From: Methylotenera sp.
Lineage (GTDB): Bacteria; Pseudomonadota; Gammaproteobacteria; Burkholderiales; Methylophilaceae
NCBI RefSeq assembly: GCF_036401095.1
Contig: NZ_DASWWA010000027.1
Coordinates: 25,091-89,090 of the forward strand
DNA: 64,000 nucleotides
Direction of reading: 5' to 3'
The notes beneath the pieces are model-generated. The model made no database searches and had not been told where the DNA came from. It saw only the letters and a program-made list of their open reading frames with translations. Each line of letters opens with the position of its first letter. Position 1 is the first letter of the stretch. This document shows positions 5,177-42,914 of the stretch, in pieces. A program made the translations under genes and the position numbers.

Positions 5177-5233
5177 GCTTAACGTCTGAATTGAGGCCGC
5201 TGTTAGGTGTCCCGCTTGAATGATGGGTTAGGC
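5177..5233 (-). other. attC site (57 bp) closing cassette 2
   Basis: Minus strand GCCTAAC-CCATC-ATTCAAG...CTCAAT-TCAGAC-GTTAAGC. 23 nt (5209-5231) are identical to the other attC. Central stem pairs poorly. Confidence 0.85.
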
Positions 5234-5482
5234 TGTAATTTGATAATGCCATAAGCCAATATACATAAATACAATAGATATACCAACATCATACAATGCC
5301 TTGCCAGTATTAACTCCCACTCCTAAAATTTTTGCAATTATCTCAGCCAAAGCGCACCCTCGTCCGTGAGTGAGGCTGACTGTTTGAGAGCTTGCATCAA
5401 GAAATGCAAAAATCAAGAACAACACAGCTATAGAAACTGATAAAACGAGCACAGGAACTCTTTGTTCTTTAGACGCTTTCAC
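5228..5482 (-). CDS. Hypothetical small two-TM protein (integron cassette 2)
   Basis: 84-aa ORF. GTG start 6 nt after GTTAGGC and the stop is the TAA of GCCTAAC, a classic cassette layout. Confidence 0.75.
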   Translation of the reverse strand: MKASKEQRVPVLVLSVSIAVLFLIFAFLDASSQTVSLTHGRGCALAEIIAKILGVGVNTGKALYDVGISIVFMYIGLWHYQITA

Positions 5483-5487
5483 TCTGA

Positions 5488-5547
5488 GCCTAACGTTTGA
5501 ATTAAGGGGCGCGCGTCAGCGCGTCCCGCTTGAATGATGGGTTAGAG
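5488..5547 (-). other. attC site (60 bp) closing cassette 1
   Basis: Minus strand CTCTAAC-CCATC-ATTCAAG-CGGGACGCGC-TGAC-GCGCGCCC-CTTAAT-TCAAAC-GTTAGGC. The bottom strand folds into a clean hairpin with three extrahelical bases (G, G, T). Confidence 0.95.
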
Positions 5548-37949: not shown

Positions 37950-38576
37950 TTATTCAATCGCTAATAACTCAACTTCAAAAACCAATGTAGCATCTGGGCC
38001 AATCACTGGGCCGCTACCGTTAGCGCCATAAGCCAAGTTTGATGGAATAGTTAACTCAAATTTACTGCCCACGTTCATTAACTGTAAACCTTCAACCCAA
38101 CCAGCAATCACGCCAGTTACCGGGAAAACGATAGGCTCACCACGGTCGTAAGAGCTATCAAACACCGTACCATCAATCAATGTGCCTCTGTAATGCACTC
38201 TTACTTTATTGCTTCTGCTTGGTTTTGCGCCATCGCCAGCCACCAATGATTTATATTGCAAGCCGCTATCTGTAGTGATCACGCCTTCTTTTTTAGCGTT
38301 TTCAGCCAAATAAGCCGCGCCTTCAGCTTGGTTTTTTGCAGACTGTTCAGCCTGTGCTGCCATTTGTTTTTCTTGGCTCTCCTTTTGCACTTGCTCAACT
38401 GTGCTGCGTTTTTCTGCATCAGTTAAACGTGATGGGGTGTCCGCCATTACATCTTTAACTGCCAGTGCGACTACGTCTGCGTCTAAGGCTAAGCCATCAT
38501 TTTTAAGCTGATGCGCCATATTTTCACCCACGATATAACTTAAGCGTTGGGTTAAGGTTTCTAATGCAATTGTCAT
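37950..38576 (-). CDS. FKBP-type peptidyl-prolyl isomerase (FklB-like)
   Basis: SGLQY, V.VHYRGTLIDGTVFDSS, VIAGW.EGLQLM and LAYG motifs. Confidence 0.93.
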   Translation of the reverse strand: MTIALETLTQRLSYIVGENMAHQLKNDGLALDADVVALAVKDVMADTPSRLTDAEKRSTVEQVQKESQEKQMAAQAEQSAKNQAEGAAYLAENAKKEGVITTDSGLQYKSLVAGDGAKPSRSNKVRVHYRGTLIDGTVFDSSYDRGEPIVFPVTGVIAGWVEGLQLMNVGSKFELTIPSNLAYGANGSGPVIGPDATLVFEVELLAIE

Positions 38577-38662: not shown

Positions 38663-38686
38663 AAAACAAAACCCGCCGAAGCGGGT
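38663..38686. repeat. 24-bp direct repeat, copy 1 (terminator hairpin, minus strand)
   Basis: AAAACAAAACCCGCCGAAGCGGGT, identical to 40662-40685. Confidence 0.9.
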
Positions 38687-38812
38687 GAGCAATTATTAAA
38701 AGTTTGCTTGTTTTGAATGGTTATCATACGATCCAAGCATCGTTCGATGTCAATGCAAGCGCGCAACACCTTGATTAATTCACCCATGATGGCCAATTTA
38801 ATAAGTAAAGTG

Positions 38813-39850
38813 TTACAGCAGATTGTCTTCCTTAAGCCTATGAAAAGCTAATCGTATTTCTTCCTCTGGAAACACATTTCGTTTATTCTTTTCTAGAGCA
38901 ACCATCTCTGAGGCAATGTATTTAATATCGTTGTTACCTACCTCTGATGTAGTGGCTAGCTTATGTACAGTAGATAGCAACTCTAGACCGTACGGAGTTT
39001 CAAATCCATCAACTAGCTTCGTTAAATTATCTATAACTGCTTCGCTTTTCTCATCATTTTTCAAATAGTCTTCTGCAACTGCAAATCCAGCCGGCGTAAC
39101 ATGTGCTTCTCTATCTGTTTGAAAGCCGGCTATTAATTTGTAATCAACCTCAAGAGCAACTATCGCTTTTTTTAAAGCTTCTGAATATGGTCCATAAAGA
39201 TTTTTAGTGAAATCCAGATTTAATGGCACACCCATAACCTGCAAAAAATAAGCAATCTTCTGAAGAGAAAGGCGATCCAATACCCCCCCAAAAGAAGTTT
39301 CAAGCTCGGCAATCGATTTTAGAAAAATCGCCCTACCTTGAGTCATTTTTAAATTCGTATCAACATACTCTGGATCGTCACTTTCATTTAAAGGTGCGTA
39401 AATAGAAACACTAACATCATCCAATACAGACAGTTTTTCCAATATGATTGGGCGCACCACATCCCAATCAAGCCCACCATTACCGCACCCCAATGGTGGA
39501 AGAGCTATTGATTTAATTTTGTATCTTTTTATATCACCGACTAAGGCATCTAGCCCTTCGGAAATATATTCCAGTTTAGATTTGGCTCGCCAGTGATCTT
39601 TTGTTGGAAAGTTCACAATAAATTTAGGCTCGCTTTTACCAAACAAATTTGTAAGCTCGAATATCAGCATGGAGCCAGGACGCAAAACTTTGGCATTGCA
39701 CGCCTTCTTGTAAGCTTTGTAGTTCTCTGGCCAACGACGCTTGAACTCAAGCGCTACTCCCTTACCCATGACTCCGACGCAATTAACCGTGTTTACCAAG
39801 GCTTCGGCTTTATCTAAAAACAAATCCCCTGATTTGAATGTAATACTCAT
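38813..39850 (-). CDS. darG: DarG antitoxin (macrodomain ADP-ribosyl glycohydrolase)
   Basis: GDL...AEALVNTVNCVGVMGKGVALEFK, IVNFPTKDHWR, IALPPLGCGNGGLDW, then a C-terminal LQKIAYFLQ...YGPYS domain. ATGA overlap with the darT stop. Confidence 0.92.
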   Translation of the reverse strand: MSITFKSGDLFLDKAEALVNTVNCVGVMGKGVALEFKRRWPENYKAYKKACNAKVLRPGSMLIFELTNLFGKSEPKFIVNFPTKDHWRAKSKLEYISEGLDALVGDIKRYKIKSIALPPLGCGNGGLDWDVVRPIILEKLSVLDDVSVSIYAPLNESDDPEYVDTNLKMTQGRAIFLKSIAELETSFGGVLDRLSLQKIAYFLQVMGVPLNLDFTKNLYGPYSEALKKAIVALEVDYKLIAGFQTDREAHVTPAGFAVAEDYLKNDEKSEAVIDNLTKLVDGFETPYGLELLSTVHKLATTSEVGNNDIKYIASEMVALEKNKRNVFPEEEIRLAFHRLKEDNLL

Positions 39851-40572
39851 ATCACAAAACATCCAGGTTTAGAATAAACAGGTAATTGATAACCAGCAGA
39901 TTGAATCATATTACTCACAAGAGCTTGTTTTTGTGCATTTGGAGCCACCACGCAAATGAACGTGTTCATAGGAACCGCAGTGCGAACCAAAAACTCTGCC
40001 ATTCTAATTGACCCACGTCGCTGATATCGTTCAGGCGTTGCTCTGCTATAAAAAAACTTACATGCCCCTCTATATCCAATTTCAGGGATTTCACCTGCAA
40101 AATAAAACTCATCCTCGTCAAACATAGTCCAGTCTATGTGGCTTTCAAGCATATTAATATCACTAACAACAATTGGCTTAGGTACTGTCGTAGTAAGTGC
40201 ATAGTTACTAAAACAACATTCTAGACCAGCAATGTATAAATCCGTAACTCTAGCGACCAAAAAAACTCTATCATCTAATCGAGATTTTGTTGATGCTGCT
40301 CCATCATTGGGCGGTATCACATCTACAGACCCACGATGAATGGCACAGGTAAATGACGTTAACGGGGAGAAATAGAAAGCAACGCAGTCATTAACCACCC
40401 CACCAAAAGGTAGCTGAAAATTATTTGTGCCACGCCGTTGAACTAGATTCTGATAACTAGTTTGATGACAGATCTGTGGATTAGGATGGTTTTTTGAACG
40501 AACCTCTCCATCTGCTAGAAATGTTGGTAGATCTCTATAGTCTATCTGTCTAAATACAAATCGCTCTGGCAT
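39847..40572 (-). CDS. darT: DarT toxin (DUF4433 ssDNA ADP-ribosyltransferase), divergent
   Basis: L..FL..G.V...N, QRR, GGVVNDCVAFYFSP, DW and AEFLV (Glu193) motifs. Translationally coupled to darG. Confidence 0.85.
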   Translation of the reverse strand: MPERFVFRQIDYRDLPTFLADGEVRSKNHPNPQICHQTSYQNLVQRRGTNNFQLPFGGVVNDCVAFYFSPLTSFTCAIHRGSVDVIPPNDGAASTKSRLDDRVFLVARVTDLYIAGLECCFSNYALTTTVPKPIVVSDINMLESHIDWTMFDEDEFYFAGEIPEIGYRGACKFFYSRATPERYQRRGSIRMAEFLVRTAVPMNTFICVVAPNAQKQALVSNMIQSAGYQLPVYSKPGCFVI

Positions 40573-40661
40573 TACCTGAACCTACACCTTTAATGGCTAT
40601 ATGTTGTTACTATACTGAAATAATTGACTAATTAATAATGAAAATAAAATACATGTTCCAG

Positions 40662-40695
40662 AAAACAAAACCCGCCGAAGCGGGTTTGTTTTTTT
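40662..40695. terminator. groEL terminator (bidirectional), containing direct repeat copy 2 at 40662-40685
   Basis: Minus strand ACCCGC-TTCG-GCGGGT-TTTGTTTT, with A/T runs on both sides. Confidence 0.9.
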
Positions 40696-40740
40696 GCAAT
40701 GCTTGTTAGGGCATTTTGCTTTGAGCAGAAAATTGAGACT

Positions 40741-40794
40741 AGGCGCGCAAGCCGCAGACAATACAATGAGTATGGCAAGGCTTGCGCAACGCAG
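40741..40794 (+). repeat. Palindromic intergenic repeat, copy A
   Basis: Stem GCGCAAGCC/GGCTTGCGC around core GCAGACAATACAATGAGTATGGCAAG. Confidence 0.65.
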
Positions 40795-40820
40795 TATCAA
40801 TGAACTGCTTAAATGCAAAA

Positions 40821-42521
<1,701 letters not shown>

Positions 42522-42626: not shown

Positions 42627-42914
42627 TTATTCGACGATAGCCATGATGTCTTCTTCGCGCATAACTAGTAGCTCTTCACCGTCAACTTTAACAGTTTGGC
42701 CTGCGTATTTGCCGAAAAGCACTTTGTCGCCTACTTTAACGTCAAGGGCAATTACTTTGCCGCTTTCGTCGCGCTTGCCTGAACCAACAGCTTGAATAAC
42801 GCCTTGATCTGGTTTTTCTGTTGCGCTATCTGGGATTACAATGCCAGACGCGGTTGTGCGCTCTTCTTCTGAACGTTTAACAATCACGCGGTCGTGTAAT
42901 GGACGAATTTTCAT
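42627..42914 (-). CDS. groS: Co-chaperonin GroES
   Basis: [14 protein letters not shown]...TASGIVIPD...EKP motif. Confidence 0.99.

Follow-up and report, generated by a model that had tools for sequence, protein, structure and literature searches.

Between groEL and the gene of an FKBP-type peptidyl-prolyl isomerase, the 64,000-nucleotide stretch of DNA analysed here (the window; C27:25091-89090, part of a 2.68-Mb, 28-contig genome of the Methylophilaceae, probably of a Methylotenera) carries a small islet that consists of a darT-darG toxin–antitoxin pair and is bounded on either side by the same perfect 24-bp sequence, the intrinsic terminator of groEL. The locus is read on the minus strand, in the order groES (42627-42914), groEL (40821..42461), the 3′ untranslated region (UTR) of groEL (40686..40820, 135 nt), a first copy of the repeat (copy A, 40662..40685), a spacer (40573..40661), darT (39847..40572), darG (38813..39850), a tail (38687..38812), a second copy of the repeat (copy B, 38663..38686) and the FKBP gene (37950..38576). 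The two core genes that flank the site are groEL upstream (546 residues; Pfam Cpn60_TCP1) and, downstream, the FKBP gene (208 residues; Pfam FKBP_N and FKBP_C), which is a called gene in public assemblies and is separated from copy B by an upstream region of 83-86 nt. The DNA between the repeats (38687..40661) measures 1975 bp, or 1999 bp with one repeat included, and is AT-rich and foreign in composition, its GC content of 38.9% (against 44.6% for the genome) falling in the lowest 3.8% of 2-kb windows. The only credible open reading frames (ORFs) in it are darT and darG.

A DarTG pair between two copies of a terminator

DarT is a DNA ADP-ribosylating toxin, the macrodomain antitoxin DarG reverses the modification and the pair is a known anti-phage system. 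In the islet, darT is predicted to encode a single-stranded DNA thymidine ADP-ribosyltransferase of 241 residues, which contains the DarT domain PF14487 (E=3.1e-19; 69.9 bits against a cut-off of 22.5) and matches the DarT model of PADLOC (E=4.6e-30). Its match to the solved DarT of Thermus (7omv and related entries) is weak, with only residues 15-84 aligning, and it is therefore a divergent member of the family, with a putative toxin function. The product of darG, a predicted macrodomain DNA ADP-ribosyl glycohydrolase, has 345 residues in the form called in public assemblies (an alternative ATG lies at 39862) and is matched by Pfam Macro (E=4e-21) and, end to end over residues 7-346, by the DarG model of PADLOC (E=5e-112). 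Its residues 3-154 are close to the solved macrodomains of Mycobacterium and Thermus DarG (PDB 5m3i, E=4.7e-45; 5m31 also matched), while residues 191-339 match the C-terminal domain of DarG in 7yk3_B (E=4e-15). The domains expected of DarTG are thus all present (PF14487 in the toxin, a macrodomain and a DarT-binding domain in the antitoxin), and the arrangement is that of other DarTG systems, with darT preceding darG, the start of darG overlapping the stop of darT, and full-length PADLOC matches to both models.

Short spacers account for the rest of the insert. The 89 nt between copy A and darT may contain a promoter of its own for the pair: a −10-like TATAGT can be read by eye at 40614-40609, no good −35 box was found with it and a consensus promoter scan did not call a promoter in this spacer. 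The sequence CAGTATAGT also lies 5′ of darT in the closest relative of the pair (L031). The 126-nt tail from the darG stop to copy B is unique to the islet, homology to the pair in L031 stopping ~20 nt past the darG stop.

The repeat itself, AAAACAAAACCCGCCGAAGCGGGT, is found at 38663-38686 and at 40662-40685 with no mismatch between the copies. No third site with up to three mismatches exists in the window, nor did any match arise in 100 shuffles, and a search of all 2,683,183 bp (28 contigs) of the genome finds the exact 24-mer nowhere else, a single additional site, on contig C12, having two mismatches. Read on the minus strand, the repeat is ACCCGCTTCGGCGGGTTTTGTTTT, a GC-rich hairpin with a UUCG loop (16 nt) followed by a U-tract (8 nt), and both copies are predicted to fold stably as intrinsic terminators on the strand of the genes. 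Copy A (folding energy −16.7 kcal/mol) has kept an upstream A-tract, which makes it terminator-like on both strands, and continues into the native 3′UTR of groEL as in relatives with an empty site; copy B, which follows darG, has lost the A-tract, is terminator-like on the minus strand only and directly abuts the native upstream region of the FKBP gene, ATCTATCATTCTCCGTCATAATTAC. The initial annotation had described the islet as bounded by a perfect 24-bp direct repeat that is the terminator of groEL. The two exact copies bear this out, as does the presence of the same sequence 3′ of groEL in two genera, and the genome-wide count that it called for shows that the repeat is not abundant. Its caveat that the hairpin core is a common terminator carries little weight in this genome, where the 14-nt core CCCGCCGAAGCGGG occurs only three times.

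The identity between the two junctions extends over exactly 24 bp. The sequences neighbouring copies A and B align with a local score of 24 (21.4 +/- 3.9 when shuffled), and a longer repeat or a duplicated groEL 3′UTR was rejected, the resemblance between the sequence after darG and the 3′UTR (GCAAT...GCTTGTT) being not significant. When the genome was scanned for exact direct repeats (18 bp or longer, 0.3-20 kb apart), the 24-mer was the sole pair of the terminator type, the other pairs being mostly tRNA 3′ ends, attC sites and repeats within genes, with a few uncharacterised. Four of these other pairs are perfect repeats of 49-101 bp (C11:16792/19254, C17:67460/72331, C3:567987/576620 and C6:11694/21016) that resemble tRNA 3′ ends by their sequence and bracket segments of 2.5-9.3 kb, which are probably islands made by integrases, or remnants of such islands. 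The attC-like motif of the integron in the window, GTCCCGCTTGAATGATGGGTTAG (5209-5545), recurs in pairs, at C13:652-1117 and C6:53111-53660, which points to additional cassette arrays at a distance from the integrase.

This structure is not an artefact of assembly, since contigs assembled independently from the 11 runs SRR11449178-88, all from a single study, are 100% identical to the window in the islet region, and several of these contigs reach across both repeats. Exact protein look-ups of DarG, DarT and FKBP in these 11 assemblies returned only the occupied form, and no contig with an empty site or an excision product, which lends no support to the earlier proposal that the islet is excisable by recombination.

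Empty sites and the making of the junctions

Removal of the islet together with one repeat was predicted by the initial annotation to leave groEL, a terminator and the FKBP gene, and exactly this arrangement, without the islet, is found in seven relatives: G019, G018 and G017, which are genomes of the same genus, and four metagenome contigs (L159, L183, L185 and L264). As the annotation had proposed to check, these darTG-free strains have one terminator copy each, which in G019 is the exact 24-mer, and the two alignments of the flanks to the genomes with an empty site overlap by exactly this 24-mer. L159 is ~88-90% identical to the window, and its flank on the FKBP side (GAATGATAGAT and the terminator) is identical to that of the window; the sequence upstream of the FKBP gene, TCTCCGTCATAATTA, is conserved in all relatives. 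With empty sites at hand and native flanks on both sides, the sequence at both outer edges of the islet is therefore native, and removing the insert with one repeat would precisely restore the ancestral arrangement. These single-copy empty sites and native junctions agree with the earlier proposal that the islet entered at the terminator and duplicated it.

These alignments bear directly on the possibility that darTG brought along a terminator of its own that merely resembles that of groEL. Hairpins of the form AAAACAAAACCCGC-loop-GCGGGT do occur in many unrelated metagenome contigs, and when metagenome contigs were searched for the 24-mer with its loop left free, the matches lay mostly in unrelated organisms, and two direct copies were never seen on one contig. 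However, the copies are identical at 24 of 24 positions, loop and U-tract included, even the 14-nt core is rare in this genome, and copy B runs into the native upstream sequence of the FKBP gene as it does in empty sites, so that it is resident rather than imported. Given the empty-site alignments, a coincidence of this kind appears close to refuted.

How the DNA came to lie between the two copies has to be judged against what the islet lacks. ORF searches together with Pfam and PADLOC scans agree with the earlier observation of a darT-darG pair only: no integrase, transposase or recombinase gene was found in the interval, nor a recombinase gene adjoining the islet. The ends have no terminal inverted repeats (score of 16, against 15.1 +/- 2.7 when shuffled), and the unit is present once in the genome. 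A non-autonomous element moved by a transposase acting in trans would explain the target-site duplication, which is the classical signature of transposition, and IS1630 of Mycoplasma makes duplications of 19-26 bp, which is similar in length (cited in PMC2853133). Nevertheless, transposition is very improbable for a single-copy element that has neither inverted ends nor a transposase and whose closest copies elsewhere share the two ORFs and not the ends.

Site-specific integration deserves somewhat more attention. The hairpin could be an att-like site, with the 24 bp as its segment of identity, used by a tyrosine or serine recombinase that acts in trans or has since been deleted, and the islet would then be a small mobilisable cassette able to excise as a 1999-bp circle. 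The clean insertion, perfect direct repeats of a length typical of att cores, several tRNA-3′-end direct-repeat pairs and a chromosomal integron in the same genome, and the repeated use of the site by other cargo (see below) would all be consistent with this scenario. It is difficult to reconcile, however, with the absence of a recombinase gene in or beside the islet, with ends that show no attC-like or IntI core sites (no RYYYAAC, and matches to GTTRRRY only inside genes), with other cargo at the site that is never flanked by a second terminator copy, with the sole recovery of occupied contigs from the 11 assemblies, and with the absence of such a repeat from the closest relatives of the pair; we consider it improbable. 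Capture by an integron is excluded by the lack of an attC at the islet, which also shows no similarity to the attC motif of the genome itself.

The closest DarG proteins are those of Methylophilus sp. 42 (89% identity) and of a Methylotenera metagenome-assembled genome (79%), and the closest darTG relatives are placed among core genes unrelated to those of the window (directly behind purA, for instance), where their DNA homology to the window is confined to the two ORFs and no flanking repeats are found. Homology that ends with the ORFs, in contexts that are unrelated, indicates that this darTG lineage moves as a bare two-gene unit. A related pair follows purA in the Methylotenera metagenome-assembled genome L032 and the purA site is empty in the genome of the window, the intergenic DNA of the two being too diverged for the junctions, and with them a target duplication, to be placed.

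With neither a mobility function nor transposon ends, the islet is read as an insertion with long target duplication, and we regard illegitimate recombination or repair as the probable way in which darTG arrived at the groEL terminator. A horizontally acquired darT-darG pair would have inserted in the short intergenic region between groEL and FKBP on the chromosome, exactly at the conserved intrinsic terminator, with direct duplication of the 24-bp functional terminator, through an event that would have involved neither transposition nor an integrase. Transcription of groESL would since then end at copy A and that of darTG at copy B, the upstream region of the FKBP gene being left intact. We infer that exactly the functional terminator was duplicated because only an insertion of this kind would have been harmless, groESL still being terminated, darTG acquiring a terminator and FKBP keeping its upstream sequence, and selection may thus have favoured the version that preserves a terminator for both groEL and darTG. 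The initial annotation had added that the arrangement insulates the toxin from heat-shock read-through, an idea that is plausible, yet of little force as a selective argument, and that is not needed, because read-through would raise both of the co-transcribed genes and because a second darTG lineage is convergent to groEL.

Variable cargo 3′ of groEL

The terminator at which the islet lies is old. The sequence ACCCGCTTCGGCGGGTTTTGTTTT or a near variant is found 3′ of groEL in two genera of the family, exactly in G019, G224 and G055, and in all lineages the sequences diverge right after the U-tract. No Rfam family was detected in the region of the groEL 3′UTR and terminator. Straight after this terminator, at least 10 relatives have different cargo. 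In the closest relative, G020 (~88-89% background identity), it is a 300-residue protein encoded convergently to groEL (L024 2041-2943, minus strand) with no match in Pfam or PADLOC, and in G024 a remnant of ~200 bp. G008 has an Nhi/AbiO gene (L112, +277..+1671 after the groEL stop; PADLOC E=1e-169), followed by a pair named BrnT/BrnA-like by sequence resemblance only, which has no PADLOC match at E<=0.001; a second Nhi/AbiO gene, cut short, is present on the metagenome contig L262 (3824-4648). Further occupants are a two-transmembrane protein resembling DUF4231/SLATT (G009), a DUF2971 (DUF2971/PDC-S31-like) protein (G001), a split AAA_16 ATPase (G188) and, in the sister genus, a 383-residue protein of unknown function (G180) and a 7.6-kb block that includes a 627-residue protein of unknown function (G055). 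The 300-, 383- and 627-residue proteins are candidate uncharacterised defence genes.

DarT itself is rare, being encoded in 8 of 251 genomes of the family, and in three of these (the window, G196 and G251) directly 3′ of groEL. G196 and G251, both of the sister genus, have a second darTG lineage (DarG 45-48% and DarT 38-41% identical to the proteins of the window) that is convergent to groEL and shares its terminator. This alternative cargo, much of it defence-related, together with the empty sites, supports the earlier suggestion of a hotspot for defence 3′ of groEL, and the region is an integrase-less defence hotspot in the Methylophilaceae.

A duplicated terminator does not generally mark insertions at this hotspot, and was rejected as a signature of it: the duplication is found in this genome only, among ~23 loci, the 22 others having no second terminator copy of at least 11 nt. 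A degenerate copy upstream of darT in G196 was likewise dismissed, since it has 8 mismatches, lies within chance (10 of 200 shuffles) and is absent from G251. What does recur are signs of exchange. G020 and G024 have a diverged, old terminator copy beside the FKBP gene and a different terminator beside groEL, which implies that whole alleles, 3′UTR and terminator included, were replaced at the site. G024, at ~75% background identity to the window, rises to 89% in the FKBP gene, and in L159 identity drops from 95-98% to 86-92% at ~41450, inside groEL. Mosaic flanks of this kind fit an exchange of alleles through homologous recombination within the neighbouring core genes, and the alleles of the hotspot (empty, darTG, Nhi/AbiO and others) may later have passed between lineages in this way.

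The same evidence gives room to an explanation without duplication, in which the two copies are the orthologous groEL terminators of a donor and of the recipient, identical owing to the strong conservation of this terminator. A donor segment with groEL, its UTR, the terminator and darTG would have been joined to the recipient by homology-facilitated illegitimate recombination, with a homologous crossover on the left, in groEL, and an illegitimate joint on the right, just 5′ of the recipient hairpin. The 24-nt terminator is identical or nearly so after groEL in the two genera, the three exact matches among them, and the divergence right after the U-tract would explain where the repeat stops at its 3′ end; in addition, the second darTG lineage already stands beside the terminator in the sister genus, G020 differs from the groEL stop to copy B and has another type of 3′UTR and another terminator, as expected if whole alleles are swapped, and L159 has its recombination breakpoint within groEL. 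However, no donor in which this lineage of darTG follows groEL and its terminator co-directionally was found, the closest pairs being in other contexts, the illegitimate joint must fall exactly at the base of the hairpin, and the UTR on the groEL side of the window is contiguous and native-looking. We therefore hold this juxtaposition to be possible but rather unlikely, and keep to insertion with long target duplication.

Several other features of the region were observed in passing. The groEL 3′UTR contains a palindromic repeat element (~40741-40794; also in L026-L028 and L111-L127) with a conserved core, GCAGACA.TAC..T.AGTA.GGCAAG, and stems that vary between genomes and stay paired; it exists in three or more allelic types, whose distribution is at odds with the genome phylogeny, the element is deleted in G019 and L159, and short matches to it occur elsewhere in the genomes of relatives. 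On L262, the Nhi/AbiO gene is followed by a frame resembling an IS3-family transposase in its first residues. In the small genomes G007 and G002 (L121/L122), a tRNA-like sequence, so recognized by its sequence, lies ~250-300 nt after the groEL stop and is followed in G007 by a 414-residue ORF whose first residues resemble a P4-type integrase, which would make this a classical integrase island beside groEL. Just upstream of the second-lineage darTG of G196 is a small pqqA-like ORF, MWTTPAAIEVRFGFEITMYVMNK (L050 2984-3055), and all genomes of that genus contain this ~90-bp sequence many times over.

Known counterparts and significance

Of the events already described, the islet comes closest to insertion with long target duplication, as seen in restriction-modification units (Nobusato et al. 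2000 Gene 259:99; Furuta, Abe and Kobayashi 2010, PMC2853133), which provide the precedent for gene units that lack mobility genes and are flanked by long target duplications (PMC2853133, PMC2875022). As in those cases, a small addiction or defence unit that has neither a mobility gene nor the ends of a mobile element lies between core genes, and the flanking repeat is single in a related empty allele, unique in the genome and longer than the duplications of transposons. Unlike them, the cargo here is a DarTG pair, the duplication is 24 bp (most published restriction-modification cases range from 26 to several hundred bp) and the duplicated segment is an exact, functional intrinsic terminator, a kind of element that is nowhere mentioned in PMC2853133. 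With the islet, a known type of event is seen in unusually clean form; it does not represent a new mechanism.

Some observations nevertheless weigh against this view. Its 24 bp exceed the <10 bp given as typical of DNA transposons but fall below the threshold of >30 bp applied in one of the published screens (both PMC2853133), and the mechanism that makes such a duplication is not known, even for the published precedent. A single duplicated allele in ~23 hotspot loci is a single event that cannot be generalised. The nearest sequenced relatives are only ~88-90% identical and do not include the allele as it was right before the insertion, and the site has mosaic flanks.

As a genomic site, the region resembles the core defence hotspots of Pseudomonas aeruginosa (PMC10250203) and Acinetobacter (PMC11723918), with which it shares a fixed position between core genes, variable and defence-rich cargo, the lack of an integrase and flanks made mosaic by homologous recombination, and it can be classed with them; it differs in being anchored at the groEL terminator, in the Methylophilaceae, and in cargo that consists mostly of single genes or two-gene systems. 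A limited literature search found no description of a hotspot at this terminator. Integrase islands at tRNA 3′ ends similarly have foreign DNA flanked by perfect direct repeats of ~20-60 bp, with the function of the target preserved, but the islet has no integrase, its target is a terminator rather than a tRNA or transfer-messenger RNA gene and other cargo at the site is without the repeat. It thus falls outside the integrase islands, as it does outside integron gene cassettes and transposons or miniature inverted-repeat transposable elements.

A more adventurous scenario, which we consider a long shot, is that the terminator hairpin is not a passive landing place but an active recombination site, where small defence cassettes enter through a reaction that copies the whole terminator, possibly leaving again as ~2-kb circles. 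The reaction could be carried out by a recombinase acting in trans, or the extruded palindrome could be broken and repaired, perhaps with the help of lesions that DarT makes on the T-tract. It would be formally like the duplication of a CRISPR repeat at spacer integration, or like attC-based cassette capture, and, if true, would amount to a new class of integrase-less, terminator-targeting cassette mobility.

On the favoured reading of insertion with long target duplication, the locus offers a nucleotide-exact view of how a bare toxin–antitoxin or defence module without mobility genes may enter a chromosome while leaving its neighbours unharmed. The unit lies between two strong predicted terminators, an arrangement that would leave intact the strongly expressed groESL operon as well as the new module and the upstream region of the next gene, and a phenomenon so far described for restriction-modification units would be extended to DarTG. 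For the methylotrophic Methylophilaceae as a family, the terminator 3′ of groEL is a recurrent defence hotspot, which may be mined for new defence genes.

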